Positions 15,986 to 63,384 of a stretch of DNA of 64,000 nt are shown piece by piece. This DNA comes from Minisyncoccia bacterium (lineage in GTDB: Bacteria; Patescibacteriota; Minisyncoccia; SW-4-49-11). Numbering within the stretch: position 1 is the first letter of the stretch; each line of letters opens with the position of its first letter. The notes under the pieces were generated by a model that was not told the origin of the DNA, searched no databases, and saw nothing but the letters and a program-made list of their open reading frames with translations. The translations under genes were made by a program, and so were the position numbers. The stretch is from the NCBI GenBank assembly GCA_044356725.1, contig JBIKVS010000003.1:4735-68734 (forward strand). Reading direction: 5' to 3'.

Positions 15986-16050
15986 ATCTATTTATATTAG
16001 GTATTGAGTATATTATATCAAATATAAAGTTTAAATACAATAATAGATTC

Positions 16051-24846: not shown

Positions 24847-24901
24847 AAAATACATCTCAATATTAAAGTATTGTCTACGATGTTTCTAATCTTTTTAAAT
24901 G

Positions 24902-32544: not shown

Positions 32545-34206
<1,662 letters not shown>

Positions 34207-37894: not shown

Positions 37895-38019
37895 ATGTAT
37901 GAGTTTATTATTTATAATTTTATTACAGTCTTTTCTATATCTATTTAACATTATACCTCCCCCCCAGATTTTTGTCAAATTTGGAGTGTGCTGATGTATG
38001 TATAGTTAATATAATAATT

Positions 38020-40795: not shown

Positions 40796-40874
40796 ATTAT
40801 TAAATATATTATCTAGTAATGTATAATTTTATTATATCATATTTATATATATTTTAAAACAAATATGTAAAGTT

Positions 40875-45930: not shown

Positions 45931-46024
45931 ATTAATTTATAAAATATTATTTAATTTTAGTATATCAGAAATTTGCTTTTTATGATATAATATATTATAT
46001 CCTTAATAAATACGAAAATACTAT

Positions 46025-47098
46025 ATGTATAAACCTGGTTATAGTGTACTATTATTAACAATAATTATATCAACTATAGGAGTAGCTTTAGCTGTAAGTG
46101 CCCTTAGTAATAGTACTCAAATTGCAAGAACTAATATTAATATTACTGATGTTGTCCTAAATAAATCTAAAGCCTCAAGTTGTGTGGAAAAGGTCTTTAC
46201 TAAGTTAAAATCATATAGATTTTATGGCGGAGATGAGACCTTTGAAGATGGATGTAGAGTCTATACTATCTCAGGTATTGGGAATAGTGAAAGAGTTATC
46301 TACACCAAAGTAGAATCTTCTATCCTAGAGACTAAAATTAAACAAATTAATCCTAACATAATTATAGACTATCAAAAACAAATTACAAATGATCAATTAA
46401 TTCAAGCACAAGAGAATAACCCCTATGTGATTGACCCTAAAGCTATAAGATTATGGCTAAAGGCAGATAGAGCTGAGGCTAACAATAATAATCCCGTATT
46501 TAGTGTTAAAAACTCTACTGATGATTTAATCGACTTTGCTCAGCTTACTAATGCTCCAAATCTAGCTCCAACATTAATTACTAATGCTATTAACAATAGA
46601 CCTGCATTAAGATTTGATGGTATAGATGATTTTCTTACCAGTACCACTACTTCTATACATACTAATAATGGATTAAGTATAATTGTAGTAGGAAAAACTA
46701 GTAATACTGCCAATAATAATCAGACTTATATTGGGAAATTTGATACTACTAATAATGAAAGAGAATGGAGATTGCAAAATGATGAATTTAATATCACAGA
46801 TAGTAACTTGTCCTTTGCAAATAATAATACTAACTTTAATATATTGACTGCACTATGGTCACCAACTTCTCCTCAAATGAGCTTATCTATAAATAATAAT
46901 CCAGCAACTACTGCTACTGGTTCAACTAGTATAACCAATACCACCGAGCCAATTATTGTTGGAGCTAATCTACAAGGAAGTACTGGATTCTTGAATGGGG
47001 ATATTGCTGAAATTTTGGTTTATAATAAAAAATTAAGCACAGATGAGTTAAATAAAGTCAAAACTTATATGAACTCTAAATATAGTCTTTACCCATAA
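46025..47098 (+). CDS. Secreted/pilin-like protein with C-terminal LamG-like (concanavalin A-like) domain
   Basis: N-terminal hydrophobic segment KPGYSVLLLTIIISTIGVALAV is pilin-like but lacks Glu at +5. The C-terminal end LNGDIAEILVYNKKLSTDELNKVKTYMN is typical of a LamG domain. Confidence 0.5.
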   Translation: MYKPGYSVLLLTIIISTIGVALAVSALSNSTQIARTNINITDVVLNKSKASSCVEKVFTKLKSYRFYGGDETFEDGCRVYTISGIGNSERVIYTKVESSILETKIKQINPNIIIDYQKQITNDQLIQAQENNPYVIDPKAIRLWLKADRAEANNNNPVFSVKNSTDDLIDFAQLTNAPNLAPTLITNAINNRPALRFDGIDDFLTSTTTSIHTNNGLSIIVVGKTSNTANNNQTYIGKFDTTNNEREWRLQNDEFNITDSNLSFANNNTNFNILTALWSPTSPQMSLSINNNPATTATGSTSITNTTEPIIVGANLQGSTGFLNGDIAEILVYNKKLSTDELNKVKTYMNSKYSLYP

Positions 47099-47101: not shown

Positions 47102-48970
47102 ATGAAAAAATATTCAGGATTTACATTATTAGAAATACTATTATATGTAGTTATTGGTGGAGTCACTTTAGCTGTAGCTGTATTTTCATTTGCTCAATTG
47201 AATAGACTCTCTACTTCTTTTAGAGTTAATAATGAATTAAATCAAACTGGCAGCTCAATTATTAGTCAAATTCAAAATATAATCAATGAAGCTGATACTA
47301 TTATAAGTCCCAAATTAGGTAATAATCCTGATAACACTCTAGTCTTGAGAAAAGGGAATGTCGACACTACTATAACCCAATCAGATAATAATATAGTTGT
47401 ATCTTATAGTGATAGTACCCCATCCTTCAATCTGAATCCAGCTGGGATACTAGCTGTAAACACTCCATCACCCACTCTATCATTCGAACAAATTGATACT
47501 CAAGAGAATAAAGATCCAAACAATATATCTCAAACTCTAAAGCTAAAATTTACTCTTAGGTATAACAAACCTGCCTTTAGTAGTTATGAATATGAGGCTG
47601 AGAAGGCTTTTGAAACTACTTTACAATTATCTAAAAAAGCCACTGCCTTTGAGCCTATTCTTAACACATATTCAACAGGAGCCAATGGAGTCGCTTATGG
47701 GTTAAGAAAATTAGTTGGATTTAATACTAATACCAATCTATTATCCTCAGCCTATAATGGACCTGCAATTAGAGTTAGAAGAGATACTGGATTAGATCAA
47801 AGTGAAATGGATATAGGCTTTAATTCTAGAGGAGAATTAGACACAGTAGCTTTACAAAATTTTGTTGGTTATCAAAACTTTTTTAATTATTCTGAAGATA
47901 TAACTAGTCCTAATGGTGGTTGGAGTTTGAATAATATAACAACCATATCAGATAATACAATAGCACCTGATGGGACTAATACTGCTGAGAAAGTTAATCT
48001 GAATACTGGTAATACTCAAAGATTTATATTAAAGGATACAAATATAGTCAGTGGGGCTACTTATACCGACTCCTATTATGTAAAAGCTAATAATAATTAT
48101 AATTTTGTTCAGATAGCAACTAGTACTGGTTTTTCAACCACAGCTTATCAGAACTATAATCTAAGCAATGGCACACTGGTAAGTTCATCTGGAGTTACTG
48201 CTGGGCAAGCTAATATTCAATCTGTAGGAAATGGTTGGTATCGTATTTCTCTCTCAGCCACAGCTACTGCATCTGGTGCTGGAAGAATGGTTTTAGCTAT
48301 TGTAAATTCAGCTACTTCTGCCAGATTAGAGAATGTCAATGTAGCTAATACTACAGACTCAATATTTGTATGGGGTGGCATGAGACATCTTGGGAACACC
48401 CTGAAGACTTATCAAAAAACAACTATCAATGCTAATACTGGGGACGGGTATATCTCTACTTGGTATGACCAATCTGGCAATAAGAATAATGCTATTCAAA
48501 CTAATACATCAGCTCAACCTAAAATTGTAGATGGAGTTACAGGAATAGTATTACAAAATAATAAACCAGCCATTAGATTTGATGGTTCTGATGACCAATT
48601 AGTAAATACATCTTTTAATAATGCTACCAACTCTACAGCATTCTTTATAGCTAGTAGACTCACTAACAATCAATCCTTTATGGCAAGATCTAACAATTAT
48701 GCTACCTTAGGAGCTACAGATTTATTCAATCCATATTATCTGAATAAATCTAGCACATCTGCAACACCTGGATCAGATACTAAAAATAGTCTAAATCTAT
48801 ATACAGCTATTAGAACTTCAGCTATTAATAGCACTCTTAATATAGGAGCTGGAAGTACTGGAAATTTCTTAAATGGTCATATATCTGAGCTAATTATATA
48901 TGATGGTAATAAATTAGCTAATAAATTAGATATTGAGAATAATCTTAGAGATTATTACGGAACTCCATAA
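47102..48970 (+). CDS. Prepilin-type N-terminus fused to a large LamG-like domain protein
   Basis: Leader MKKYSG|FTLLEILLYVVIGGVTLAV; C-terminal GNFLNGHISELIIYDGNKLANKLDIENNL, a LamG-type end; 622 aa. Confidence 0.6.
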   Translation: MKKYSGFTLLEILLYVVIGGVTLAVAVFSFAQLNRLSTSFRVNNELNQTGSSIISQIQNIINEADTIISPKLGNNPDNTLVLRKGNVDTTITQSDNNIVVSYSDSTPSFNLNPAGILAVNTPSPTLSFEQIDTQENKDPNNISQTLKLKFTLRYNKPAFSSYEYEAEKAFETTLQLSKKATAFEPILNTYSTGANGVAYGLRKLVGFNTNTNLLSSAYNGPAIRVRRDTGLDQSEMDIGFNSRGELDTVALQNFVGYQNFFNYSEDITSPNGGWSLNNITTISDNTIAPDGTNTAEKVNLNTGNTQRFILKDTNIVSGATYTDSYYVKANNNYNFVQIATSTGFSTTAYQNYNLSNGTLVSSSGVTAGQANIQSVGNGWYRISLSATATASGAGRMVLAIVNSATSARLENVNVANTTDSIFVWGGMRHLGNTLKTYQKTTINANTGDGYISTWYDQSGNKNNAIQTNTSAQPKIVDGVTGIVLQNNKPAIRFDGSDDQLVNTSFNNATNSTAFFIASRLTNNQSFMARSNNYATLGATDLFNPYYLNKSSTSATPGSDTKNSLNLYTAIRTSAINSTLNIGAGSTGNFLNGHISELIIYDGNKLANKLDIENNLRDYYGTP

Positions 48971-49233
48971 GTTTAGTTAATATTTTTTAAAGTAAGTTTA
49001 TGTTCTCTGAAATATAATACGGTAAATCTCAGTATTTTTTAAATCCAAAAGGACTGAGCTCTGCCTTCTAAAAATCACTACCTACTTTTTACCTCTTAAC
49101 CCATGTTTTCATAGATAAGCCTCGGCTTTTGTCATTGATGATCTGAGCTTATTTTCTACGGCCTTGAGATGTTTATTATATTTATTGTTTTCTCTCATCT
49201 ATTTTGGTGTTTAGATAAAGTTGGAAGATCTTA

Positions 49234-49331
49234 GTCCTCCTCCGTCACCTACGGTGACACCTCCCCCAAGGGAGGACAGTTCTTATCTTGTCTCCATTTG
49301 GAGGGAGTACCCGCAGGGGGAGGGAGGACAG
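49234..49331. repeat. GC-rich hairpin-dense modular element (family copy 4)
   Basis: Module B in reverse orientation, gtcctcctccgtcacctacggtgacacctcccccaagggaggacagtt (49234-49281), is the reverse complement of the 18621-18663 copy with one mismatch. Module A gtctccatttggagggagtacccgcagggggagggaggaca (49290-49330). It sits between convergent genes. Confidence 0.65.
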
Positions 49332-49334
49332 AGC

Positions 49335-50525
49335 CTACAGCCCAAATCTACCTTTGGTAGCATTGAAGTTTTGTTGAATTTCTTCTGGGGTAAGTGCTCT
49401 ACTATAAAATTTTGCAGAATATATTCTACCATTAAAAAATCCATAACTTGGGTAAGCGCCTATCAAATCTGTAGTGATTTTTACATTTGTTCTTGTACTA
49501 GCTAGACCATTTTTTATAAATGTTCCATTTATATAAAGAGAAGGAACTTTATTTGTATAATTTACTACTATATGAATTGGGGCATTTATAGTAACTGAGT
49601 GCGATAATAATGGAGGCATATAAGCAGCTGAATGCTCATAAACACTTATACCATTAGTTCCAACTGATATTCCAGAACCGGCATCAGGAGATGCAACAAA
49701 TTGAGGGCCAATTACATATTTTTGTCCTGATGTACCCCCAAAACCAGAATTAGTTTGTGATTCTATTTCGTGAGTTGTTTGTGGTAGGCACCAAATATCG
49801 TATGAAAAATTATTAAAAACATTAGAAGTACTTGAGGATACTCTATCATCGCCCCCATCAAAGACTAAAGCACCTCCATTAGCAGAGTTGTAGGTAGGAG
49901 TAGAAGGAGCTGGAGCAAGTGTCCCATTATTATTGTTCCCACTTAAATCAAACCAGGTATTTTGGGCTGTATTTAAACCTGGATAACTATTTATATTACC
50001 TGCATCTAGATGTAATACTAGTCCATTAGTGACTATAGATGGAGTGATTGTATTAGATTGTAGTTCAGTAGTAGCTTCTTTATTAATTACTCCTGACTTA
50101 TTAATTATAATAGACTTACTTACTCCCCCACCAGTTAAATCTATTTTAATAGAATCATTACTCAAGTCTAGTTCACCATTGATAAGCTTGAATGGTATGT
50201 CTAATGTCTGTTCTGAACTGACTGTGATGCCAGAATTGATTGTGATAATTTCAGGATATTGAGTAGATGTACAGGTTACTGCTGTTATAGTGTATGTTTT
50301 AGCAGTATTATCTATACATACTCTCCATTGAGAATCTTTATACTGATTTTTAGATAATTGTTGGGCTCTTAGCAATGCATTGTAGAGAGATTCATGGGCT
50401 GCACTTAAATCATTGCGGATTACTATACTAGATACTAAAGGTGTCGTAATAGCTATAAGAATAGCTATCAAAACTATTACTAAAGTAATTTCTATTAATG
50501 TAAAACCTTTATATTTACCCTTCAT
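49335..50525 (-). CDS. Pseudopilin/type IV pilin-like protein with C-terminal LamG-like domain
   Basis: Leader MKGKYKG|FTLIEITLVIVLIAILIAI; C-terminal GFFNGRIYSAKFYSRALTPEEIQQNF, a LamG-type end; last gene of the pilus block. Confidence 0.65.
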   Translation of the reverse strand: MKGKYKGFTLIEITLVIVLIAILIAITTPLVSSIVIRNDLSAAHESLYNALLRAQQLSKNQYKDSQWRVCIDNTAKTYTITAVTCTSTQYPEIITINSGITVSSEQTLDIPFKLINGELDLSNDSIKIDLTGGGVSKSIIINKSGVINKEATTELQSNTITPSIVTNGLVLHLDAGNINSYPGLNTAQNTWFDLSGNNNNGTLAPAPSTPTYNSANGGALVFDGGDDRVSSSTSNVFNNFSYDIWCLPQTTHEIESQTNSGFGGTSGQKYVIGPQFVASPDAGSGISVGTNGISVYEHSAAYMPPLLSHSVTINAPIHIVVNYTNKVPSLYINGTFIKNGLASTRTNVKITTDLIGAYPSYGFFNGRIYSAKFYSRALTPEEIQQNFNATKGRFGL

Positions 50526-50533
50526 ACTTTGAT

Positions 50534-51805
50534 TTAAGCTTGAAAATTACCAACTAAGCTATAAATTGGGAGTAAAATAGCAACTGCCAAAAATACAACA
50601 CCTACCCAAACTATTATCAATAAAGCCGGTTCTAATAGAACAGCAATGTTCTTAGCAATCTGCTCTGATTCCTGCTCATATCTCTCCCCCAATTGCTCCA
50701 ATACTTCTGGTAACTTTCCTGACTCTTCCCCAGCTGTTATAATTTCTTGAGCTGCGAATGGAAGTATTGAATTAGTTCTTTTCTTATTCACCTCAAATAT
50801 ATTATGAAAACTTTTACCACTTTGAATATAATTGGCTAAAAATTGGGTGTAGTTTTTGTACATATAATAATCGTGAATTTTAGATAAAGACAATAAAGCC
50901 TTCGTGATAGGAATACCTGAATTTAATAACATTGCAAGGTTATAAGCAAACCTAGAGACCTCAGTTTTAACGATTAAATCATTGAATACTGGTAAATGAA
51001 ATAATAGCCACTGACCAGACTTTCTTGTTGCTGGAAAGACGAAAAGCACTAAAATTGATAGAACCAATGTTCCTACAATTAAAGGTATAATAATATACCA
51101 ATACTTAGACATAAATTCTCCAATTTGGATTAAAATTCTAGTCATTACTGGTAATTTTACATTCATATTCGAGAATACCTGTCCAATTCTAGGCAAAATG
51201 AAAGTTGAAACTCCTATACCCAAAACTAAAACCAGTGTAAGAACAAATATAGGATAGAATAAGGCCGATCTTAATTGTGCTCTACGCCTTTGATCCTTGT
51301 CTAGTGATATAACTGTTCTTTTAATTTTATCTGCTAAATTTCCTGATTCTTCACCAATTTGAATTAAAGAAATTAAGAAATCTGGTAAGAAATTATGGTC
51401 TTGCATTGTTTGAGACAAACTACTACCACTTTCCACACTGCTTAACATTGAGTTGAGTGTTTTTTTCAAAGTTTTATCTTGAGTATTTTTATATAATATC
51501 CTTAAAGAAGTATTTACACCCATACCAGAACCTACTAATAATGCTAGGTTATCTAAAAAGGTTTTTTTTGCTTTAGTAACTTTACTGCTACCTCTTTTCA
51601 CTTTAGTACGAGTTGGAGTTTGATTCTGAAATGATTGCTTTGCATACAGTTGCTCAATTTCAGTAAAAACTGACTGATTAGCATTATCTATATTAACATC
51701 AGGATTTTGAGTTTCAATTGTATAATTAGGACTAACAACTTGATCTGTAGTTGTATTTAGATTATTAATCACGTCTTTTGATGTATCTTTTTTCTTAAAA
51801 AACAT
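50534..51805 (-). CDS. pilC: Type IV pilus/type II secretion inner-membrane platform protein (PilC/GspF family)
   Basis: Two T2SSF-like repeats with three TM segments; FLDNLALLVGSGMGVNTSL; adjacent to pilB. Confidence 0.8.
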   Translation of the reverse strand: MFFKKKDTSKDVINNLNTTTDQVVSPNYTIETQNPDVNIDNANQSVFTEIEQLYAKQSFQNQTPTRTKVKRGSSKVTKAKKTFLDNLALLVGSGMGVNTSLRILYKNTQDKTLKKTLNSMLSSVESGSSLSQTMQDHNFLPDFLISLIQIGEESGNLADKIKRTVISLDKDQRRRAQLRSALFYPIFVLTLVLVLGIGVSTFILPRIGQVFSNMNVKLPVMTRILIQIGEFMSKYWYIIIPLIVGTLVLSILVLFVFPATRKSGQWLLFHLPVFNDLIVKTEVSRFAYNLAMLLNSGIPITKALLSLSKIHDYYMYKNYTQFLANYIQSGKSFHNIFEVNKKRTNSILPFAAQEIITAGEESGKLPEVLEQLGERYEQESEQIAKNIAVLLEPALLIIVWVGVVFLAVAILLPIYSLVGNFQA

Positions 51806-51810
51806 ATATT

Positions 51811-53544
51811 TTAACTATATTCTTCTGGTATTTGTGCAACTCTCATAACTTCATCTAATGTAGTAACTCCTATTTTTACTTTTTCTATACCGTCCTCAAA
51901 TAAGGACATAGCTCCCTGTTTACGAGCTACTTTAGCTATGATATCAGAGGTAGGTTTATGTAAGACTAGTTCTCTTAATTCTTCTGACATTTCTATCAAC
52001 TGATAAATTCCACTTCTACCTTTATATCCTGTAAATCCACAGTTAGAGCATCCTTTACCTCTATACAATGTTATACTCTCTTCTGAGAAAAATCTTTCAA
52101 GTGACTCACCTACTGTTTCTTCTAACTCTGTTCTATTTACTGTATAGGTATATACACAAGCTGAACATATTTTACGGACTAATCTTTGAGCTACAATAAG
52201 TTGTAATGTTGTAGAAAGTAAAAATGGGTCAATATCCATATTCAATAGTCTTGGCAAGGTACTTTCCCCATCATTAGCATGAACGGTTGAAAACAACAAA
52301 TGTCCAGTTAAAGCTGCATTAATTGCAATTTGAGCTGTTTCATCATCTCTAATCTCTCCTACTAGAATTATATTAGGATCTTGACGCAAAATTGATCGTA
52401 ACCCACGAGCAAATGATAGGTCTGTTTCTTTATTAACTTGTATGTGATTAACTCCTTCAATTTTATACTCTACAGGATCTTCAATAGTAGTTATATTTCT
52501 ACCTTCATCATTAACTGTTTTCAATATAGAATAAAGGGTTGTAGATTTCCCTGAACCAGTAGGACCTGTGACCAATACCATTCCAAATGGTTTTTGAGAT
52601 GCCTTTCTTAATGTCTTTATATTTCTCTCATTAAGACCTAATGTGTCTAATGTAATGTTAGATAGTGTATTGGTTAAAACTCTAAGTGCAATTTTTTCTC
52701 CATATACAGTTGGTAAAATTGAAACTCGAACATCTGTAACTTGATTGTTTTTTTGGAAGCGAATGGCACCATCCTGAGGAATAAAATGCTCATCAGTTCT
52801 TAATTGTGCATTAACTTTAATTAAATTAAGAATATTTTCATAATATGAAAATGGTATTGTTCCAACTTCTTGCAACATACCATCTACCCTAAATCGAATT
52901 CTGACACTTTTATTATATTGTGGCTCAAAATGTATATCTGATACTCTCTCCTCTAAGGCTTCTTCTATAATTTCCTCTACAATCTCTGGAGCAACTGTGT
53001 CAAATTTATCCATTATGGATATAAATCTAGAAGATAAGGGGGCCTTATAGTTCAATAGAGATCTGTCTATATCCTGTGTTAAAGAGTATCCAAATTCTAT
53101 AGGTTTTTGGAATAACTTGATAAGCTCTTGACTTAAATCTTTCTCTTCTATAATTTCTTTTTTCCCCCCAATAAATCCAGTTTTCTCTTCTCTTTTTATA
53201 ATCAACTTAGCATTACCCTGCAATACAACCGGATTATCTGATGCAACTTGTATTTTATCAGCTAAGTCTTTGAAATACACTAATCTTAACTCACGAGCTA
53301 CAGACTCGGGAATTTTCATAACATCATCTTTAGCTGGAATAAAAGTATTTAAATCAAAGTAAGAAACTCCCCAGCTCTCTGCTAAAGCTTGCCCTATAAT
53401 ATCATACGTAATAATATTATTCTGAACTAAATAATCTATAGCAATAGCTGGGTCATTGTTAGTACTAGAAAGGGCTAACTTACAGTCATCTAAAGCTATA
53501 TATTGCGTATTTACTAATAGATCTAATATTTCTTTTGGTTCCAT
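51811..53544 (-). CDS. pilB: Type IV pilus assembly ATPase (PilB/GspE family)
   Basis: Walker A VLVTGPTGSGKSTTLYS, Asp/His boxes, and a C-terminal tetracysteine CSAC...CSNCGFTGYKGR. Confidence 0.9.
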   Translation of the reverse strand: MEPKEILDLLVNTQYIALDDCKLALSSTNNDPAIAIDYLVQNNIITYDIIGQALAESWGVSYFDLNTFIPAKDDVMKIPESVARELRLVYFKDLADKIQVASDNPVVLQGNAKLIIKREEKTGFIGGKKEIIEEKDLSQELIKLFQKPIEFGYSLTQDIDRSLLNYKAPLSSRFISIMDKFDTVAPEIVEEIIEEALEERVSDIHFEPQYNKSVRIRFRVDGMLQEVGTIPFSYYENILNLIKVNAQLRTDEHFIPQDGAIRFQKNNQVTDVRVSILPTVYGEKIALRVLTNTLSNITLDTLGLNERNIKTLRKASQKPFGMVLVTGPTGSGKSTTLYSILKTVNDEGRNITTIEDPVEYKIEGVNHIQVNKETDLSFARGLRSILRQDPNIILVGEIRDDETAQIAINAALTGHLLFSTVHANDGESTLPRLLNMDIDPFLLSTTLQLIVAQRLVRKICSACVYTYTVNRTELEETVGESLERFFSEESITLYRGKGCSNCGFTGYKGRSGIYQLIEMSEELRELVLHKPTSDIIAKVARKQGAMSLFEDGIEKVKIGVTTLDEVMRVAQIPEEYS

Positions 53545-53592
53545 AATATATTTTTTAATTTTAATATTTTAATTATATCATAAAATATAACT

Positions 53593-53958
53593 TTATGTAA
53601 TCAGAACTTGTTTCACGGATTCAGCTAACTGACTAATTGAAACTTCTGATTTTACATAATAAGCAGTTATACCTAGCTTCTCAACACGAGTCCTATCTTC
53701 AGGTTGTCCTAAATTAGTCATAATAATTACCTTAGTAGATTTACTTTTTTTCCTAATAGATTCTAATATTGTAAATCCATCAGCGCCTGGCAATATTAAG
53801 TCTAGCAGAATACAGTCAAAATCTTGTTTATCTATAATACCAAGAGCAATAGTACCATCGTTGGCCACAGTGGTATCAAGTCCAATTTGCTTAAGCTTTA
53901 AATCTAAAACTCGTGCTATAGCTGGCTCATCTTCTATAATTAAAACTTTATATGACAT
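53593..53958 (-). CDS. Single-domain response regulator (CheY-like receiver)
   Basis: VLIIEDEP...ILLDLILPGADG carries the receiver-domain phospho-acceptor Asp; 121 aa with no output domain. Confidence 0.8.
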   Translation of the reverse strand: MSYKVLIIEDEPAIARVLDLKLKQIGLDTTVANDGTIALGIIDKQDFDCILLDLILPGADGFTILESIRKKSKSTKVIIMTNLGQPEDRTRVEKLGITAYYVKSEVSISQLAESVKQVLIT

Positions 53959-53986
53959 AATCTTTGATATATTTAAATTTATTATA

Positions 53987-55585
53987 TCACAGTTGACTTT
54001 TTATAACAATCGGTAATTCTAAAAAGAAAGTAGTTCCTTGATTTTCTTTTGATTCAAACCATACCGAACCATTCATAAGTTCAATTAATTTTTTAACTAT
54101 ATAAAGTCCTAGTCCATTACCATCTGGCTGACAGTTTTTAGCATTGTCTGCTCTAAATAATCTACCGAAAATTTGTGATTGTTGTGATTCTGGGATACCA
54201 ATTCCTGTGTCTGAAATTGTTATCATTAATCTATTTTTATCTACTGCCTTATCAACTGTTAATCTAATTTTACCATTTTGATTGCTATATTTAATAGCAT
54301 TATGTAATATGTTCAAAAATATTATATCTAAATATATTGGGTCGTTTTCTATTGATTGAGTAAAAGGTATATCTTTTTCAAATGTTAAATTTTTTAAATC
54401 TATTTCTGATTGTAAGGTCTTTGACAATGACTCTATATATGTGCTTAAATCAATTTCTTGAGTACTAAATTGAATTTTACCTAAATCAATTCTAGATAAA
54501 TTTAATAATGAATTGACTAACTTCTCCATTCGATTACCTTCTTTATATATATCATTAGCTGCAATACGAACCTCATCATCAATAGAATTATTGGACAAAA
54601 TAATTTCTGAATTCCATTTAATGGAGGTAATGGGAGTCCGCAACTGATGTGAGGCAAGTGATACAAACTCTTTTTGAGCCCTCTCCGTTGTACGTTCTTG
54701 AGTAGTATCACGAAGGATATATACAGAACCTAATATATCCTTATCCAATATAATAGGATTGGATGTATTCTCTAAAATTATATTTTTTTTCTTATTATTA
54801 GAGATGTAATTAAAAATACTTGTATATCTGTTTTTAGGGTTAATATTAAATTCTTCCTTACCATCAGAAATAGATTTATCTTCATTTAATTGTATATCTG
54901 GTAAGACATTGTAGATAAATTTACCAAGTATATCATTAACTCTTAAATCTAAAATATTTTCTAACTCTTTATTTACTAAAAATATATTCCCATCTTTACT
55001 TGTTACTAGAAGTCCATTTGGAAGGGAATCAATAATAGCATTTGTCTTTGCCTTTTCCAATTCTAATAATTTTTGTTGGCTTTCTAACTGCTTTACTAAA
55101 TTAGCCAACTCCTGTTTAGAGTCAGCTAATTCCTGATTTTGCTGCATTAACTCACTTAGTTTGTTCAAATAGCTCTCAGTACTTAAAGATAAATTAATTT
55201 TATTAGTCAGTGATGATCTATTCAACTGATATAGTGAGTTATTAACAAATTCATTTAAATATATCACCTGTGCTTTGTCTATTGAATCTTTATTAACTAA
55301 ATTAGATACTGTTTCAGAAATAATATTCAATGTTTCATAAACTGGTTTAATGATACCTATGTATAATGTATAAGAGAAAAACCAACCTATGACAAATAAT
55401 AATATAACTACCCCTATTAACAAGTGAGTGACTGAATCTGAATATATTATATCGATACCACCAGTATACCGCAAATAAGCTAACCCTATAATAATAATAT
55501 AGAGTATACTTGTAAATAATAATACTAATGCTGTAAATACACGAAACATTACTGACTTAATTAATGGATTAGATTTTGTATTCAT
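53987..55585 (-). CDS. Sensor histidine kinase
   Basis: Two N-terminal TM helices, a coiled-coil, a PAS-like region, HisKA H-box SLASHQLRTPITSI, and HATPase_c G-boxes DTGIGIP...GNGLGLYIV. Confidence 0.8.
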   Translation of the reverse strand: MNTKSNPLIKSVMFRVFTALVLLFTSILYIIIIGLAYLRYTGGIDIIYSDSVTHLLIGVVILLFVIGWFFSYTLYIGIIKPVYETLNIISETVSNLVNKDSIDKAQVIYLNEFVNNSLYQLNRSSLTNKINLSLSTESYLNKLSELMQQNQELADSKQELANLVKQLESQQKLLELEKAKTNAIIDSLPNGLLVTSKDGNIFLVNKELENILDLRVNDILGKFIYNVLPDIQLNEDKSISDGKEEFNINPKNRYTSIFNYISNNKKKNIILENTSNPIILDKDILGSVYILRDTTQERTTERAQKEFVSLASHQLRTPITSIKWNSEIILSNNSIDDEVRIAANDIYKEGNRMEKLVNSLLNLSRIDLGKIQFSTQEIDLSTYIESLSKTLQSEIDLKNLTFEKDIPFTQSIENDPIYLDIIFLNILHNAIKYSNQNGKIRLTVDKAVDKNRLMITISDTGIGIPESQQSQIFGRLFRADNAKNCQPDGNGLGLYIVKKLIELMNGSVWFESKENQGTTFFLELPIVIKSQL

Positions 55586-55589
55586 ATTT

Positions 55590-56024
55590 TTATTCTATAG
55601 TGTTAATAATAACTCCATTTTCGGCTAAAGGAGCTGAGACTATTACCCTCCCCTGATTATTTACATACACAGCATAGCCAGTAATATCTTCTCCCTGTTG
55701 CTGAGGGTCTATAGGAATGTTCCCAAAAGGAATATAAGCTTCTAAATCTGAACTGATATCTATTTTACTATTATCTAGAGTACAGCCTGGCTGACAAATA
55801 CTCTTAATATCATTTGTAACACCAGTAGGTAAATTTCCAGAATTAATATCTCTATATTGATTTATTGCTGTATAGATAGTCATTACATCCGCTTGTCTTT
55901 GAGCATTATTAATGTCTGCAATTTGTTGTCCTGGATTAATCAATCTAAACAGAATAACCATCAATATACTAACTAAAGTCATAACTAATAATATTTCTAA
56001 TAATGTAAATGCTTTTTTATTCAT
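55590..56024 (-). CDS. Pseudopilin/type IV pilin-like protein
   Basis: Leader MNKKA|FTLLEILLVMTLVSILMVIL; 144 aa. Confidence 0.7.
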   Translation of the reverse strand: MNKKAFTLLEILLVMTLVSILMVILFRLINPGQQIADINNAQRQADVMTIYTAINQYRDINSGNLPTGVTNDIKSICQPGCTLDNSKIDISSDLEAYIPFGNIPIDPQQQGEDITGYAVYVNNQGRVIVSAPLAENGVIINTIE

Positions 56025-56584
56025 TATGGTGTATTGTCATTGAATACATTATTTATATCACCTAAATTATCGTCAACTAGTCTATAATTAGCACTCTCAG
56101 CACTTACCCCTGTTGGTTTCTTAGTCATATTAATGAGTGTCTCTTTAAGTTCTATATCTTCCGTATCTCCCTCTGGATTGATTTGATAAGTTACTTTCAC
56201 TGTTACTAACTTAGCATCTGGAGTTACATCATTTTCAATTCTAACTCTACGAGTACGCACTGGATTATCTAATTTATCTTGTGAAGAAATTGGCGCTAAA
56301 ATAAGATTCCACTCACCATTTTCAAATGACAGCCCAAACTCTGCTCCACTAGGATTATTATCAAGATCATCTGTATTAATTAATAAAGAATAATCTTTAT
56401 CTCTAATTGACTTTAAAGCTATAATACCTTCCTTAGCCATAGCTAAAGCCTGACTTTGAGAGATACTAGACTGATTGTTCCTCTGAGCTATAAGCATAGA
56501 GGCAACTATACCAGCTATGGCTAAAGCTAAAATTGAACCTGCCAACAAAACTTCTATAATACTATAACCTTTTTTATATAACAT
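56024..56584 (-). CDS. Pseudopilin/type IV pilin-like protein
   Basis: Leader MLYKKG|YSIIEVLLAGSILALAIAGI with Glu at +5; 186 aa. Confidence 0.6.
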   Translation of the reverse strand: MLYKKGYSIIEVLLAGSILALAIAGIVASMLIAQRNNQSSISQSQALAMAKEGIIALKSIRDKDYSLLINTDDLDNNPSGAEFGLSFENGEWNLILAPISSQDKLDNPVRTRRVRIENDVTPDAKLVTVKVTYQINPEGDTEDIELKETLINMTKKPTGVSAESANYRLVDDNLGDINNVFNDNTP

Positions 56585-56618
56585 ATTTATTTTATAACTT
56601 GTTTATAATCTTATATTA

Positions 56619-57677
56619 TCATATTTTAGTATTTTTGACAATGAATTTGGTTATAGAAAAAGAAATTATAATGAGAGTTCCCATTCCAACAACAAATATA
56701 ATTAATTTACCTCTGGTTTCTAAGGTTAAGGCTGATATTCCAAATATTATACTAATTGTATACATAATTGCTACAGATATTCTTTGACTTAGTCCAGCTT
56801 GTAATAATTTGTGATGAAAATGCCTATTATCTGCCTCAAATATAGATTTTTGGTTCCATATTCTTTGAGAAATGACTACAATAGCATCTATAATTGGAAA
56901 AGCCAAAACTAAAGCAGAAGTAGCTATTTTTCCTCCACTAATTAAAGATAAAACAGCCAACATATAGCCTAGAAACATACTACCATAAGTCCCTAAGAAT
57001 ATTTTTGATGGATGCCAGTTAAATTTTAAAAAACCCAAATAAATACCTGTTAATATAATTGTAATAAGAGCAATATGAGGCTGATTTACAAATAACGTTA
57101 ACGATAATATAAACAAAGTTATAAATCCAATTATACCAACCCCTCCAGCTAATCCGTCTATTCCATCTAGCCAATTTACTACATTCATAAGTCCTACAAT
57201 CCAAAGTGCTGTTATGATATCTTGAGGAAAGACAATTCCAAAAAATTTATAGCTATCTATAAACCACAAATCTCCATTTGGCAAATTAATAGCTTGGATA
57301 CCGACCCCAGACCAAATCACAATACCAGCTATACCGAATTGCCAAATAAATTGACTACTCCAATGTAGATCTAATTTTTCATCTATATATCCATATATCA
57401 ATATTCCAATAGCTCCTAATATCATTCCCAGAAATTCATTTTGCCAAGGTAATAATCCTGTACTTAAAAGAGTAAGCGTTGTTAGTATAAATATAGGTAT
57501 AATTACTAAACCACCAATCTTAGGTTTAATGCCACTGTGAATGTCTCTTTTACGGACTTTACTGTCAAAAATTTTTTCTGTCCATTTTTTAGATAATATG
57601 AATCTAAAGCTAAAAAATGTTATAAAATAAACTACATTAAGAACTCCAATATATATCCATATATTATCCCACTCCAT
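56619..57677 (-). CDS. Polyprenol-phosphate:N-acetylhexosamine-1-phosphate transferase (MraY/WecA family)
   Basis: NVVNWLDGIDGLAGG (family motif NxxNxxDGIDGL) and a polytopic topology; distinct from the mraY at 14945-15985. Confidence 0.7.
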   Translation of the reverse strand: MEWDNIWIYIGVLNVVYFITFFSFRFILSKKWTEKIFDSKVRKRDIHSGIKPKIGGLVIIPIFILTTLTLLSTGLLPWQNEFLGMILGAIGILIYGYIDEKLDLHWSSQFIWQFGIAGIVIWSGVGIQAINLPNGDLWFIDSYKFFGIVFPQDIITALWIVGLMNVVNWLDGIDGLAGGVGIIGFITLFILSLTLFVNQPHIALITIILTGIYLGFLKFNWHPSKIFLGTYGSMFLGYMLAVLSLISGGKIATSALVLAFPIIDAIVVISQRIWNQKSIFEADNRHFHHKLLQAGLSQRISVAIMYTISIIFGISALTLETRGKLIIFVVGMGTLIIISFSITKFIVKNTKI

Positions 57678-57679
57678 AC

Positions 57680-58201
57680 TTAAGCAGCTACTTTAACTCG
57701 AGCGGAACGGATTAAACTTCCATTTAATTTATACCCTACTTGTAAAACCTCTATAATAGTATTTTGTTTAGAACTATCTTCTAGCTCAATGCTATCAACA
57801 GCCTCATATATATTAGGATTAAATATCTCTCCAACAGGATCAATGATTTCAACACCCTCATCAATTAAAATATCTTGCAGTTGTTTATGAATATATACTA
57901 TACCTTGAACCCAATTATTATCTTGTAATTCTACTGGTAGATGCTTGGTAGCTAATGCAAAGTTATCAAATACTGGGATTAGATTTTCGATTAAACCTTT
58001 ATTAGCTAATTTAATACTATCTAATCTAGCTTTTTCTGATTCTTTCTTTAGATTCTGATAATCTGCTTGTGCTCTTTGCCAACCAGCTAGATTATAAGCT
58101 GACTCCTCTTTGATTGTTTCAAGTAATTGCTCCAAATCTAAATTTTCTTGAGGTTGATTCTTATTATTAATTTCTTCCGTTTGATTATCTTTCTTCTTCA
58201 T
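57680..58201 (-). CDS. grpE: Nucleotide exchange factor GrpE
   Basis: 173 aa; coiled-coil N-terminus and a conserved C-terminal GrpE region (LIPVFDNFALA...IVEVLQVGYKLNGSLIRSARVKVA). Confidence 0.85.
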   Translation of the reverse strand: MKKKDNQTEEINNKNQPQENLDLEQLLETIKEESAYNLAGWQRAQADYQNLKKESEKARLDSIKLANKGLIENLIPVFDNFALATKHLPVELQDNNWVQGIVYIHKQLQDILIDEGVEIIDPVGEIFNPNIYEAVDSIELEDSSKQNTIIEVLQVGYKLNGSLIRSARVKVAA

Positions 58202-58907
58202 AATTATTACTATTAAGCATATATTCTACCATGGCTATATTCTTTGCATATTGCATACCTTTTGGTCCAACTACAACTATTGTACCATCATCTGAGTCAA
58301 TTGAAAACTTTCCTACTATAACAGAATATTTGTGCATGGAAGTGTGTGGACTTTCCTCCCCAATATATAGTTTATAGCTACCATGACCAACATCTTTACT
58401 AATTTCATCAATATGAGATTTAATTTCCTCTAAATCATCAAGCGCATCTCTAATGAACTCTACTGATGAAAACCCTGGTTGTGTTAAAAAATTAGACATA
58501 CCTTCTTCAAAGATCAAATCTGATGATAATTTACCCATCGCTACATTTCCTGATTCATGTGCAAAAGATAATAATAGTTTTTTTAGCTTAAGATGAATTT
58601 CACTCATCTTATTCATATCATTCAGTAGTTTATGAGTGACTGACGCATATTGACGCAGAATTTCTTGTCTCCCTAAAAGTCTGTTTACATAATATCTATA
58701 GCCTTGGTCTGTTGGGATTCTACCCGATGATGTATGAACTTGTTTTAAATAACCTTCTTCTTCTAATTCAGCCAATTCATTTCTAATAGTAGCACTAGAG
58801 TATGGTAGTTGATATTTTTTCTGAATTGTAAAGGATGACACAGGCTGAGCTGTATCGATATAATCAAGGATTACATATTCTAAAAATTGTTCTTTTCTAC
58901 TGTCCAT
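58185..58907 (-). CDS. hrcA: Heat-inducible transcription repressor HrcA (short form)
   Basis: N-terminal winged helix YIDTAQPVSSFTIQKKYQLPYSSATIRNELAELEEEGYLKQVHTSSGRIPTDQGYRYYV, typical of HrcA; overlaps the grpE start. Confidence 0.75.
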   Translation of the reverse strand: MDSRKEQFLEYVILDYIDTAQPVSSFTIQKKYQLPYSSATIRNELAELEEEGYLKQVHTSSGRIPTDQGYRYYVNRLLGRQEILRQYASVTHKLLNDMNKMSEIHLKLKKLLLSFAHESGNVAMGKLSSDLIFEEGMSNFLTQPGFSSVEFIRDALDDLEEIKSHIDEISKDVGHGSYKLYIGEESPHTSMHKYSVIVGKFSIDSDDGTIVVVGPKGMQYAKNIAMVEYMLNSNNYEEER

Positions 58908-58956
58908 ATGTACACATTATAGCATATAATTAACATTTTTTCAATGTTTGAGTTTG

Positions 58957-61404
58957 TTATTTATCTATAATATCATTTAATTGTACTTTGATTATGTCTC
59001 CTCTTTTTATTGAATGTATTAAAAGATAATTAGCTAAATATGTCTCTAAGATTGATGATATAGTACGCTCTAATTCACGAGCACCAAAGTCGGGATTGTA
59101 GCCTTTTTCTGCTAAATATCTAATAACCTCATTATCCACCTCAAGCCTAACACCCCTTTCCTCATCAAAGCTTTGAATCATACCTTCTATTATTTTACTA
59201 GCTATTTCACTTACAGTGTCTATATCTAATGGATAGTACACTATTACATCTGTAAATCTGTTAATAAATTCTGGAGCAAATTCTTTCCCTTTTATAATAG
59301 TATCTATTAATTCTTGTTTAAATATTGTTTTATCAAATTCAGGATGACTTTTTATAAATTCTCTTAGGAATAAAGAACCTGCATTCGATGTAGCAATAAT
59401 AATTGAGTTCCTAAAATCAGTTCTAATACCTCTATTATCCGTCAAAAATCCTTCGTCTAAAATTTGTAAAAATATATTCAAAACTTGTCTGTGAGCCTTT
59501 TCTATTTCATCTAACAATATAAGTGAGAAAGGCTTGTCTTGCACTTTCTTAGTAAGGAAACCTTCTTGAAAAAGGTTATCTTCCCCTGCCGGAGCTCCTA
59601 GAATGCCATAAACCGATTCCTCGCTTCCAAATTCATTCATATCTAATCTAATCATTCTGTCACTCGATCCAAAATAATGCTTAGCCAAAGCTTTGGCGGT
59701 TTCAGTTTTACCGACTCCAGTGGGACCTAAGAAAAGAAATGTGCCTATAGGTTTATCTCTTGCCTTTACATCTAATTGAGCTCTTTTCAATGAGTTCACT
59801 AAGGCAAGTATACCTTCTGGTTGCCCTTTAATCTCAGATTGCAATTTGGTTTCTAGAGATATTAAAATATCTTTTTCATCATTTTGTAAAGTATTAACAT
59901 TAATATTAACCCTTTCTGAAACAACTGTTCTAATATGACTTTCGAGTACAAAAGGATTGCCCTCGATATTAGCTTGATTCACCGCATCTGATAGTATTTC
60001 TACGGCTTTACCAGGAAAACCACCCTTACTAACATATCTTTCTGAAAAACTCATCACCGCCCTTAGAGATTGATATGTAATATATTTATTATACATTCTA
60101 GACAAATCAAAAGATGTCATCATTAATACATACATAGTGTCTTCTTTGGAAGCATCCTCCACCGTAATATCTTCAAACAAACTATCAATCACTGGAAAAC
60201 TTTTCACACCACTATGATATCCCTCTGGATTATCAAGCCCAATCACATTAATAATATTGGAATTTAAAAACTTAATAATAATATTCCTAATTTCATCGTT
60301 GGCTGATAAAAATAACTCTGATATATTTTCAATGACTAGAATTATATTACCTGACTTCTCTGCATAATTTAAAGCTTTGAGTAAATATTGTGGGGCTTCT
60401 GGAGTACCTGAAATTAAATCAGTTGTATTCAATTTCAAGACTCGACTTAGATTTTTGTTTTTCTCTATTTGATATTGCCTAATTGTAAAGGCCAAATTAC
60501 TAATAAGGGATCTTTTCCCAACACCTATATTTCCTAAAATAAGGATATTATGCCGATTAGAATTAGATAAATTAGTTAAGACTCGCCTTAAGATATCTTG
60601 ATGGATAATAACTCTATGAGGGTCTCTATGTACTATAGATTCTGTAATATCATCAGTAATTCTATCTAAGTCATTAGTATAACCAATGGTCCAAGAACGC
60701 CCCAATGAACCAAAACTTTTATATACTCCCTCTGGACTCCACGTGGGTATTACCTTACTATTACTATAATATAAAGCCTCCCAAGCTATAATTTGCAAAA
60801 AATCTTCTTTAGATAAATCTAATTGATCTAATAATGTTTTGAATATTCCTCCTTGTTCAAACAATAAATATAATAAAATATGAGAACCTATACGTGGCTC
60901 TTCCCAAGATATACTGAGATTATTAGCCTGATCTAAAAACTCATCCACTGAGATTAAATTTCTACTATTCTCTAACCCTAAATCTTTTAGCTTAGCATAA
61001 AATTCATTTGGGACTAAACCCATATACGTTAGTATAGTCTTTCCACGACTACTTTTAGTAATTGCCCTGATTAATTGTAAATAGGTAAGTTTTTTAGGGA
61101 AATACTTTACTAAATATTGAGCTGTATCATAATCTAATATTTCAGCATAATTATTAGCCAAAATAAACTCATCTTGATTAGATCGTAATTTTAGCACTAC
61201 GAACAAATAAGCTACAATATACAGATAAATGCTTGTGAATGCTAATATAGCTGCAAGAAGATAGTTACCTGTTGTATAACCAATTACTGATGCTAATATA
61301 ATAAATATAATCCATAATAAATAACTTACAAAATTGAAAATAAATTTGTCTATTATATTACTCAGAAAAGTTCTAGTGTGGTATATAGAATAAAAATATT
61401 TCAT
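58957..61404 (-). CDS. Clp-family AAA+ ATPase (ClpB/ClpC-like) with N-terminal transmembrane anchor
   Basis: Two N-terminal TM helices, then Clp_N-like repeats, a degenerate NBD1 (GNIGVGKRS) and a canonical NBD2 (LFLGPTGVGKTETAKALA...LLDEIEKAH...ATSNAGS). Confidence 0.7.
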   Translation of the reverse strand: MKYFYSIYHTRTFLSNIIDKFIFNFVSYLLWIIFIILASVIGYTTGNYLLAAILAFTSIYLYIVAYLFVVLKLRSNQDEFILANNYAEILDYDTAQYLVKYFPKKLTYLQLIRAITKSSRGKTILTYMGLVPNEFYAKLKDLGLENSRNLISVDEFLDQANNLSISWEEPRIGSHILLYLLFEQGGIFKTLLDQLDLSKEDFLQIIAWEALYYSNSKVIPTWSPEGVYKSFGSLGRSWTIGYTNDLDRITDDITESIVHRDPHRVIIHQDILRRVLTNLSNSNRHNILILGNIGVGKRSLISNLAFTIRQYQIEKNKNLSRVLKLNTTDLISGTPEAPQYLLKALNYAEKSGNIILVIENISELFLSANDEIRNIIIKFLNSNIINVIGLDNPEGYHSGVKSFPVIDSLFEDITVEDASKEDTMYVLMMTSFDLSRMYNKYITYQSLRAVMSFSERYVSKGGFPGKAVEILSDAVNQANIEGNPFVLESHIRTVVSERVNINVNTLQNDEKDILISLETKLQSEIKGQPEGILALVNSLKRAQLDVKARDKPIGTFLFLGPTGVGKTETAKALAKHYFGSSDRMIRLDMNEFGSEESVYGILGAPAGEDNLFQEGFLTKKVQDKPFSLILLDEIEKAHRQVLNIFLQILDEGFLTDNRGIRTDFRNSIIIATSNAGSLFLREFIKSHPEFDKTIFKQELIDTIIKGKEFAPEFINRFTDVIVYYPLDIDTVSEIASKIIEGMIQSFDEERGVRLEVDNEVIRYLAEKGYNPDFGARELERTISSILETYLANYLLIHSIKRGDIIKVQLNDIIDK

Positions 61405-61802
61405 AGTATAAAGCTCCTAATAATTAATACAAAGAATAAAACTGGATATGTCACCCATACTAATAATACTATCGTACCTATTATACTTGTTATACTCAAA
61501 ACGATTATTCCTGTTATAATAGTGAATAATCGAACAAAAGCTCCTACTACTCTAGCTACCATATTAGATGTCCAAATCTCTAGTATGCGATTTATATCAA
61601 ACCCTTTATCTGGATAAGCATAAGATTGGTTCTTCCAAGGAGAAAAAAAGGTTTTTAACAAAAAGACAAATGAATATATTTTACTAATAACTGTAATATA
61701 TTTATATAATAATTTTATAATTTTCAGAGGCATTTCCAAAAAATACCATTGTAGGAAAATAGTCACTAATTTTATATTATATGATGCAGTTTCAATAATC
61801 AT
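61401..61802 (-). CDS. Hypothetical small membrane protein
   Basis: 133 aa with three or four hydrophobic helices; coupled to its neighbours. Confidence 0.35.
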   Translation of the reverse strand: MIIETASYNIKLVTIFLQWYFLEMPLKIIKLLYKYITVISKIYSFVFLLKTFFSPWKNQSYAYPDKGFDINRILEIWTSNMVARVVGAFVRLFTIITGIIVLSITSIIGTIVLLVWVTYPVLFFVLIIRSFIL

Positions 61803-61803
61803 A

Positions 61804-62805: not shown

Positions 62806-62816
62806 AAATATTTTTA

Positions 62817-63290: not shown

Positions 63291-63384
63291 ATTAATTTAT
63301 TTGATATATATATTCATATTAGTATATGATATTATTATAACATATAATTATAATTTTTATAAATAATTTGATAACTTTTGAAAT

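Follow-up and report, generated by a model that had tools for sequence, protein, structure and literature searches.

A PAS kinase and a stand-alone receiver encoded beside pilB in a Patescibacteria pilus module that abuts an hrcA-grpE-GT4 module

Introduction

When heat-shock, glycosyltransferase, two-component and type IV pilus genes lie head to tail in a small genome, do they share one control or are they only neighbours? The question is raised by a 64,000-nucleotide stretch (the whole of which we call the window) from a metagenome-assembled genome of Patescibacteria (candidate phyla radiation, CPR; G+C ~31%). Here ten minus-strand genes run from hrcA and grpE through a GT4 sugar-phosphate transferase, two pilin-like proteins, a histidine kinase and a receiver to pilB, pilC and a pilin with a LamG module. 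The initial annotation of this block proposed a co-transcribed unit in which pilus biogenesis is wired to a sensory pair and possibly to the heat-shock regulon, with the GT4 as a possible supplier of a sugar for pilin glycosylation. Taken globally, our analysis favours, with a probability of roughly 0.6, two abutting modules, one of which carries a kinase-receiver pair that would act on the PilB/PilC motor and not via transcription. No other host-attachment and motility device of CPR episymbionts is as well supported as their type IV pili (PMC12206443, PMC9894109).

Results

Ten genes in a densely packed window

Open reading frame (ORF) calling returned the same ten ORFs as the initial annotation, in order and coordinates. 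Families were assigned with Pfam and NCBIfam, the Pfam scans covering nearly all window ORFs of at least 90 amino acids (aa). All ten gene calls were confirmed, save one pilin (56024-56584) without a Pfam match, whose call depends on its N-terminal motif. In order of transcription the block (49335-58907) reads:

58185-58907, minus strand: short HrcA, 240 aa (PF01628, 66 bits; cutoff 22.2)
57680-58201, minus strand: GrpE nucleotide exchange factor (PF01025, 130.8 bits), overlapping hrcA by 17 nucleotides (nt)
56619-57677, minus strand: GT4 polyprenyl-phosphate sugar-1-phosphate transferase, WecA/TagO-like (PF00953, 110.8 bits), starting 2 nt past grpE
56024-56584, minus strand: minor-pilin-like protein, 186 aa, whose N-terminus KKG↓YSIIEV fits a prepilin cleavage site
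55590-56024, minus strand: type IV pilin, 144 aa (N_methyl and TIGR02532), with a ComGC-like N-terminus and a 1-nt overlap with the preceding gene
53987-55585, minus strand: sensor histidine kinase (PAS, HisKA with His313, HATPase_c)
53593-53958, minus strand: stand-alone receiver (REC-only), 121 aa (PF00072, 80 bits), no output domain
51811-53544, minus strand: PilB-type pilus assembly ATPase, 577 aa with N-terminal domain (T2SSE, PF00437, 397.8 bits, residues 187-568)
50534-51805, minus strand: PilC/GspF-type inner-membrane platform protein (T2SSF, PF00482, in two stretches, 173.8 bits)
49335-50525, minus strand: LamG modular pilin (N_methyl and Laminin_G_3), a GspH/ComGD-like pilin module followed by a LamG (concanavalin-A-like) lectin module

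The gaps between these genes, in transcription order, are -17, 2, 34, -1, 4, 28, 48, 5 and 8 nt. This tight co-directional packing is no higher than the background of the window, where the minus strand holds 53 of the 59 ORFs, ~93% of the sequence is coding, and same-strand gaps have a median of 9.5 nt, with 36 of 50 measuring at most 50 nt. The co-directional run itself begins upstream of the block, at PspC (62817-63290), and two membrane proteins and a Clp-like AAA+ protein precede hrcA. Since short gaps are the norm in this genome, the relation of the genes had to be decided by comparison with relatives.

The Pfam scans agree with the initial annotation that PilT, PilD and PilM are not in the window, and they contain no DnaK or DnaJ. 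PilN and PilO were not found in them either, although small divergent versions could escape the scan.

Two modules that occur apart in relatives

We traced orthologs of the kinase down to 33% identity and inspected their genomic contexts (loci are numbered L below). Kinase homologs carry the labels Minisyncoccia, Parcubacteria or Paceibacteria, and an identical kinase protein occurs in at least five other samples, with the same locus there where contigs are long enough. Close relatives (kinase identity 52-88%) retain the full gene string; in L006, L007 and L172 (52-65%) the window order from hrcA to FtsW is intact, including hrcA-grpE-GT4-pilin-pilin-kinase-receiver-PilB-PilC, and L006 and L007 also retain the upstream run from PspC to the Clp-like protein.

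The pilus genes were also found in other surroundings (x marks one further gene). L008 (kinase 38%) reads DnaG-RpoD-x-pilin-kinase-receiver-PilB-PilC-LamG; L010 and L173 (37-38%) have a Mur ligase followed by kinase-receiver-PilB(-PilC); and L174 (36%), a contig with just one partial gene upstream of the kinase, reads x-kinase-receiver-PilB-PilC-LamG-LamG. The order kinase-receiver-PilB is present in 7/7 independent contexts of kinase orthologs, and PilC comes next in all six that are long enough, L010 ending within pilB. The proposal that kinase and receiver belong to the pilus genes is borne out by this conservation.

The other half behaves likewise. In a metagenome scan anchored on the GT4, three loci (L104-L106, GT4 56-57% identical) retain HrcA (240 aa)-GrpE-GT4, and GrpE-GT4 is visible on a 2-kb contig (L103, GT4 54%). 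What follows in L104-L106 is a TrmB-like regulator, a GT1 glycosyltransferase, MreB, MetK and RmlD, and kinase, receiver, PilB and PilC are all absent within 10 kb of hrcA-grpE-GT4. Conversely, L008, L010 and L173 have the pilus module without hrcA, grpE or GT4. Because each set occurs without the other in relatives, the block very probably consists of two separate modules. Their seam is the 34-nt gap at 56585-56618, with the GT4 on the hrcA-grpE side as the last gene of its module, and their abutment would be a neighbourhood specific to this lineage of Patescibacteria (class Minisyncoccia/Paceibacteria), without a regulatory signal behind it.

The competing view is that the whole block is one operon, with the pilus genes under heat-shock control through HrcA and its operator and with the GT4 providing sugar for pilin glycosylation. 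It can point to the short gaps and to the persistence of the hrcA-grpE-GT4/pilus junction in L172 and in L009, where the kinase is only 33% identical and the order is hrcA-grpE-GT4-(three LamG proteins/pilins)-kinase-receiver-PilB-PilC, with LepA upstream in place of the Clp-like protein. Against it stand the separation of the modules in L008, L010, L173 and L104-L106 and the close co-directional packing found genome-wide. Thus, while the conservation of kinase-receiver-PilB-PilC holds in the synteny comparison, hrcA-grpE-GT4 is not always alongside, and a common operon of the HrcA/GrpE genes with the adjoining pilus genes is not supported.

A PAS kinase and a receiver without output domain

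The kinase starts with two predicted membrane helices, separated by ~15 aa of loop, and continues with a coiled coil, a cytoplasmic PAS domain, HisKA and HATPase_c, a PhoR/PnpS-like layout. In an alignment of 16 orthologs, all with the two helices and a short outside loop, W68, Y75, P81 and H313 are invariant, the first three forming a W-x6-Y-x5-P motif at the exit of helix 2. Its best NCBIfam matches are PnpS, WalK and PhoR, each below cutoff (PnpS 262.5 vs 400).

The receiver keeps an intact phosphorylation site (E9, D10, D53, T81, K103). Its closest solved proteins are the stand-alone receivers RR468, CheY and Spo0F, and its best family matches are OmpR-family receivers, so that it looks like an OmpR-type regulator minus the DNA-binding domain. 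The catalytic residues of both proteins are in place, and the pair is conserved beside pilB-pilC.

Such a pair could also be a general-purpose system derived from PhoR/PhoB or WalK/WalR, reporting, for example, on phosphate or envelope status to a target elsewhere; the receiver could then be a Spo0F-like phosphorelay intermediate or phosphate sink, and its place next to pilB would be synteny without a direct link. The PhoR-like kinase layout and matches, and the OmpR-family and Spo0F resemblances of the receiver, favour this explanation. However, all the family scores lie under their cutoffs, no Hpt protein or DNA-binding regulator is found near the kinase in any locus of the kinase family, and pst and phoU were not found in the window scans.

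A receiver directly upstream of pilB in other CPR

To this we add a scan anchored on PilB, run with one genome per GTDB species, whose listed matches comprise 10 other CPR loci and ~70 non-CPR loci; these were checked by tblastn map, ORF calling and Pfam, and the non-CPR loci served as the contrast set. Among the matches listed, 6/10 other CPR loci have a stand-alone receiver immediately before pilB, namely L012 (an unclassified Patescibacteria bin), L013 (Paceibacterota), L014 and L015 (Peribacteria), and L016 and L017 (Saccharimonadales). It is adjacent to pilB in none of the ~70 non-CPR loci listed, bar L019, which is labelled Gammaproteobacteria and may be mis-binned.

The pilB-adjacent receivers are 37-50% identical to the window receiver across classes. 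In its alignment with 14 of them from other CPR, all 15 sequences have E9, D10, D53 and K103, each has T or S at position 81, and an NLxQxED motif after beta-4 is invariant too. The gap between receiver and pilB shrinks to 1-3 nt in L008, L009, L015 and L174 and turns into an overlap in L013, an arrangement that suggests translational coupling in several relatives.

A PAS kinase upstream of the receiver is common in these other CPR loci, though not constant. L013 has superoxide dismutase, receiver, PilB, and L014 has zeta toxin, receiver, PilB; L017 reads kinase, x, x, receiver, receiver, PilB, and in L016 a HAMP-PAS kinase is followed by a 256-aa REC-containing protein, the 121-aa receiver and PilB. 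The receiver family of Saccharimonadales is large and strongly conserved: a query with the L017 receiver gave 757 matches, all 120 clusters listed being at least 69% identical, and no named protein of TM7x (Nanosynbacter lyticus) appears among the matches listed. Of two receiver-anchored look-ups in Saccharimonadales, one returned kinase-x-x-receiver-receiver-PilB-PilC-pilin. Sensor and pilus genes are linked in most of the CPR relatives sampled.

The Saccharimonadales gene set upstream of pilB (L016 6485-9957; L017 6349-9873; P0214 context) forms a larger conserved group: a HAMP-PAS kinase, unannotated proteins of ~265 aa and ~111-121 aa, and receivers of 146-158 aa and 118-121 aa. L016 has the shorter version described above, with the single 256-aa REC-containing protein between the kinase and the 121-aa receiver.

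For the general-purpose explanation these data cut both ways. The two tandem receivers and sometimes two kinases of Saccharimonadales, and a module in L175 that is not beside PilB, are in its favour; it is opposed by receiver-pilB adjacency, often translationally coupled, over several CPR classes with wholly different flanks. We regard this explanation as unlikely.

Promoter-like sites and the single CIRCE-like element

Totals from a window-wide scan of this AT-rich DNA are at chance level, with 103 promoters vs 95.8 expected and 6 terminators vs 3.8 expected. We therefore relied on positional conservation and on enrichment of the extended -10 motif TGnTAnAAT. This motif occurs 48 times in the window, and 12 of the 48 copies sit 3-60 nt before a same-strand start codon vs 1.3 expected (~9-fold), which argues for a real promoter signal in this genome. 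Other extended -10 sites lie, for example, at 16012-16020, 40831-40839, 45983-45991 and 63334-63342, and several share bases with the TGA stop of the gene before. Within the block, predicted promoter sites fall in the four larger gaps, at positions conserved in 8-10 relatives, and hairpin elements follow the last gene:

58916-58944, minus strand: predicted hrcA promoter, -35 TTGAAA, 17 nt spacer, extended -10 TGcTATAAT; conserved in 9 relatives
56613-56641, minus strand: promoter-like site at the GT4/pilin junction, -35 TTGTCA inside the GT4 3' end, then the GT4 stop TGA and -10 TAATAT
53981-54009, minus strand: promoter-like site before the receiver, TTGTTA, 17 nt spacer, TGATATAAT, in which TGA is the kinase stop codon
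53572-53601, minus strand: promoter-like site before pilB, ATTACA, 18 nt spacer, TGATATAAT; ATG 27 nt downstream; conserved in 10 relatives
49230-49337, minus strand: two GC-rich hairpin elements directly past the LamG pilin stop codon, fold energy -52.3 kcal/mol (z = -2.2)

The hrcA ATG lies 8 nt past its -10, so the mRNA would have almost no leader. At the junction the first pilin ATG is 28 nt downstream, and 10 relatives have the same arrangement of TGA with TATAAT, TAATAT or TATTAT (TATAAT in L006, L007 and L099). The receiver site is conserved in the family of the window, with close variants in L008 and L173. In place of the pilB site, L008, L009 and L174 have the receiver-pilB gap of 1-3 nt.

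No terminator-like hairpin occurs between 63290 and 49338, a point in favour of the one-operon view, and because of this absence read-through co-transcription across the block is possible. Transcription of the unit probably ends at the hairpins past the LamG pilin. The predicted signals favour several promoters with possible read-through, ending at 49230-49337. Co-transcription, as initially proposed, is thus compatible with the short gaps and the missing internal terminator, and is weakened by packing at background level and by the conserved promoter sites at hrcA, the first pilin, the receiver and pilB; these four sites equally speak against a single operon.

As to heat shock, we searched for the HrcA operator CIRCE (controlling inverted repeat of chaperone expression), using the canonical sequence and the organism's own variant, with up to 3 mismatches in the window and up to 4 in 17 related loci. 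The sole CIRCE-like element in the window, TTAGCAGT-N11-ACTGCTAA at 34523-34549, differs from the canonical TTAGCACTC-N9-GAGTGCTAA at 3 positions and sits between a consensus TTGACA-17-TATAAT promoter and groES-groEL (groES 34223-34483, groEL 32545-34185). At these thresholds CIRCE is absent before hrcA, throughout 49335-63290 and from the 17 related loci. The block therefore offers no operator for HrcA control of the pilus genes or of hrcA's own operon, and the suggested membership of the pilus in a heat-shock/CIRCE regulon is not supported. With the separation of the modules and the conserved promoter sites, this makes the one-operon view very unlikely.

The GC-rich hairpins past the LamG pilin belong to a family of elements of ~50 nt each, with copies at 10579-10632, 18619-18668 and 24794-24852 (and 24591-24599) but none between 49338 and 63290. 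In this 31% G+C genome they are confined to the larger intergenic gaps, where transcription units appear to end, and may be REP-like (repetitive extragenic palindrome) terminators or mRNA stabilisers. There are two sequence types, one being CTGTCCTCCCTTGGGGGAGGTGTCACCGyAGGTGACGGAGGAGGAC (two copies, 96% identical). The receiver-pilB gap of L010 (12067-12275), 209 nt long, is packed with GGAGG/CCTCC hairpin repeats reminiscent of them. Rfam gave nothing in the window beyond one tRNA.

The hrcA-grpE-GT4 module

Operons of the order hrcA-grpE-dnaK-dnaJ with a CIRCE operator are found in Firmicutes and many other bacteria. The window resembles them in having hrcA followed by an overlapping grpE and a CIRCE-like repeat between the promoter and groES; it departs from them in that the GT4 takes the place of dnaK/dnaJ, HrcA is ~100 aa shorter and the hrcA promoter has no CIRCE. 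HSP70 and DnaJ have no match anywhere in the window scans, and the ORF at 34651-36552, tried as a dnaK candidate, was rejected as a 633-aa pilin with beta-propeller repeats. The module, with a strong predicted promoter of its own, would be a proteostasis and envelope operon from which the usual dnaK-dnaJ have been lost.

HrcA scores 185.7 against TIGR00331, just short of the cutoff of 197.2, and falls below the length of a full-length repressor (~340 aa). Compared with HrcA of T. maritima (PDB 1STZ), residues 3-79 correspond to 17-93 and residues 134-233 to 233-327; the region 94-232 of 1STZ, a stretch that takes in some of the GAF-like domain as well as the inserted dimerisation region, has shrunk to ~54 aa. 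This internal deletion of ~85 aa leaves the winged-helix N-terminus and the C-terminal part in place, and the short length (239-241 aa) recurs in L006, L007, L009, L105 and L172.

The GT4 is far under the equivalog cutoffs for WecA (90.6 vs 326) and MraY (62.2 vs 192), and its nearest solved chains are MraY 4J72 (50 bits) and DPAGT1 (28 bits). We rejected MraY as its identity, since the second of the two GT4 paralogs in the window, at 14945-15985, passes the MraY cutoff (195.7 vs 192.05); it sits in a cluster of the dcw (division and cell wall) type with MurD and FtsW, an amidohydrolase gene lying between mraY and murD. The coordinates given for this cluster together with MraY are 14945-15985 and 11981-13369.

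TagO/LCP pathways are an established route for wall-linked glycopolymers. An LCP-family (LytR_cpsA_psr) ligase encoded elsewhere in the window (25400-26737) suggests such a polymer here and makes a TagO/WecA-like start of it the more economical inference; most likely, by analogy, the GT4 of the block initiates a lipid-linked cell-wall glycan. A role in pilin glycosylation, as first proposed, is not supported by context: the GT4 stays with hrcA-grpE where there are no pilus genes and is absent from pilus modules elsewhere, and no Wzy_C or PglL-type (PglL/PilO/TfpO) oligosaccharyltransferase is present among the scanned ORFs of the window.

A further idea is that the receiver controls the neighbouring GT4, as EpsW activates EpsZ in Myxococcus, and so couples surface glycan synthesis to pilus signals. 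Activation of an initiating phosphoglycosyl transferase by a single-domain regulator has a precedent (PMC12802240), and in the window the GT4 lies 2.7 kb upstream of the receiver. Yet most loci with kinase-receiver-PilB-PilC have no GT4 (L008, L010, L012-L017, L173), and L104-L106 have the GT4 with hrcA-grpE and neither kinase nor receiver. This coupling is extremely improbable.

Pilins and pilus machinery

PilB and PilC are assigned at family level. PilB contains the Walker A motif GPTGSGKST; its best match is TIGR02538 (493.4 vs a cutoff of 675.65, residues 6-570), followed by GspE (459.7 vs 630.25). For PilC every equivalog model is under its cutoff. A class III signal peptide motif (G↓F/Y-x-x-x-E followed by a hydrophobic helix) is found in the pilins at 55590-56024 and 49335-50525. 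The minor-pilin-like protein at 56024-56584 has weak N-terminal NCBIfam matches to ComGE, XpsI, PilV and GspI (E 2e-4 to 9e-3) and is kept in relatives at 58-86% identity. The LamG pilin is probably an adhesin shown on the pilus; a gene in its position after PilC is also present in L008, L009, L012-L014, L016-L018 and L174.

Further pilin-related genes are scattered through the window. A convergent plus-strand pair is conserved beside the pilus module: 47102-48970 encodes a 622-aa pilin with a domain related to the head spike fiber of phages and gene transfer agents (NF048003, 78.9 bits), and 46025-47098 a 357-aa LamG protein in which no pilin motif was detected. The 633-aa pilin at 34651-36552 carries DUF5122 beta-propeller repeats, 36614-37978 encodes another pilin of 454 aa, and 40875-43958 a 1027-aa protein with 13 DUF5122 repeats and no pilin motif. 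Two tandem paralogous small pilins on the plus strand (21083-21613 and 21753-22253, 88% identical over 291 nt) are candidates for the major pilin.

The Clp-like protein preceding hrcA (58957-61404, 815 aa) has hydrophobic N-terminal helices at about residues 20-75; of its ATPase domains the first gives only a weak match and the second shows good conservation, and the protein lies under all ClpA, ClpB and ClpV cutoffs. Its place after PspC and two unannotated membrane proteins, before hrcA, is conserved.

Discussion

One known two-component system for the control of pili is PilS-PilR, whose genes lie in type IV pilus clusters in Pseudomonas, Myxococcus and Geobacter. Its kinase, PilS, spans the membrane with six helices; its regulator, PilR, is a sigma-54 activator of the NtrC type that carries AAA+ and DNA-binding domains. 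The window shares with it a kinase/regulator pair set among pilB, pilC and pilin genes, with the kinase gene adjoining the pilin genes, and PilS-like sensing of the membrane pilin pool by the kinase is conceivable. The kinase of the window, in contrast, has two membrane helices and a PAS domain, and its receiver lacks AAA+ and DNA-binding domains, which makes transcriptional control of pilA by the receiver alone impossible.

Further parallels are receivers that act on pilus motors or their localisation and not on DNA: the CheY-like PilG and PilH of the Pil-Chp system (review PMC11656802), and two PATAN-REC proteins of Synechocystis, PixG and PixE, which bind PilB1 (bioRxiv 10.1101/2021.06.11.447907; PMC11181946). 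These are, however, fed by CheA-type kinases with chemoreceptors and CheW, and PixG and PixE carry the extra PATAN domain; Hpt, CheW and MCPsignal domains occur in no scanned ORF of the window. Another likeness is EmvR (PMC11973254), which is also REC-only, ~120 aa long and phosphorylatable on an Asp; a histidine kinase feeds it, and its output is on a pilus ATPase, as we propose here, rather than on DNA. EmvR is an orphan gene not beside pilB, and ColS, the kinase that feeds it, has a classical DNA-binding partner as well, whereas the window receiver is encoded directly upstream of pilB, has a PAS kinase of its own and belongs to a Gram-positive-like CPR cell.

Among CPR, the pilus genes resemble loci 1 and 2 of Nanosynbacter lyticus TM7x (PMC12206443) and the CPR-wide pilus families (PMC6744442) in PilB, PilC, divergent and modular pilins and the absence of a secretin; TM7x locus 2 is also without PilT (PMC12206443). 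Unlike the window, these accounts name no kinase or receiver at the loci, and TM7x_00430, directly upstream of pilB1, is left unnamed in Table S3 (PMC12206443). The LamG pilin is similar to known modular lectin pilins, among them the PilC protein of Streptococcus sanguinis, which joins N_methyl to PF13385 (PMC8179133), in fusing a pilin module to a concanavalin-A-like/LamG module. CPR type IV pili, modular lectin pilins and loci without PilT (PMC12206443, PMC6744442, PMC8179133), and two-component pilus control as such (PilS-PilR, Pil-Chp, EmvR), are already known. What appears to be new is that, across CPR classes, the gene immediately before pilB can encode a REC-only regulator, in most cases accompanied by a PAS kinase; our literature searches on receivers or kinases at CPR pilus loci returned nothing explicit, and we found no description of such an arrangement.

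Mechanistically, the kinase would use its two helices and PAS domain to sense a cue close to the membrane or in the cytoplasm, and would phosphorylate the receiver on Asp53. The phosphorylated receiver would then bind the PilB/PilC motor, switching pilus assembly on or off without a transcription step, and the parts could be expressed separately from the promoter sites that precede the first pilin, the receiver and pilB. The motor is the most likely target because the receiver has no output or DNA-binding domain and its gene lies directly before pilB, to which it is coupled in several relatives. The pair is probably dedicated to the pilus; that the receiver acts directly on PilB is a tentative proposal, to which we give a little less than even odds. 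Host contact, the membrane pilin pool (as for PilS) and nutrient status can be named as signals by speculation.

Several points weigh against the two-module, motor-directed scheme. L009, with the most distant kinase ortholog, still has hrcA-grpE-GT4 beside the pilus module, so that the junction is old and could have a functional reason. Its promoter-like site in the window (TAATAT) is weaker than the other three. The frequencies from the PilB scan are rough, as the nearest relatives are not among the matches listed; three of the 10 CPR loci in them (L018, L022, L083) have no receiver upstream of pilB, and in L021 it is ~2 kb upstream and not adjacent. The second Saccharimonadales look-up (L175) gave kinase-kinase-receiver-receiver without PilB nearby. 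Finally, the step from receiver to PilB would follow solely from gene adjacency and the missing output domain, and the receiver also resembles Spo0F-type phosphorelay intermediates.

In compact genomes, tight co-directional packing is no sign of functional coupling without comparative evidence, and the tempting story of pili in a heat-shock regulon is here removed as unsupported. Pilus control in CPR episymbionts is not described in the literature searched, and the kinase-receiver pair attached to pilB provides a testable handle on it; the arrangement appears to reach Saccharimonadales (L016, L017), a group to which genetically tractable strains belong. A more general and doubtful reading is that pilus extension in many CPR is gated directly by a 'headless' OmpR-type receiver paired with a PhoR-like PAS kinase, the cue being, for instance, host contact, the pilin pool or a nutrient (phosphate or DNA). 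If true, kinase-receiver gating would be a main behavioural switch of obligate episymbionts with strongly reduced genomes.

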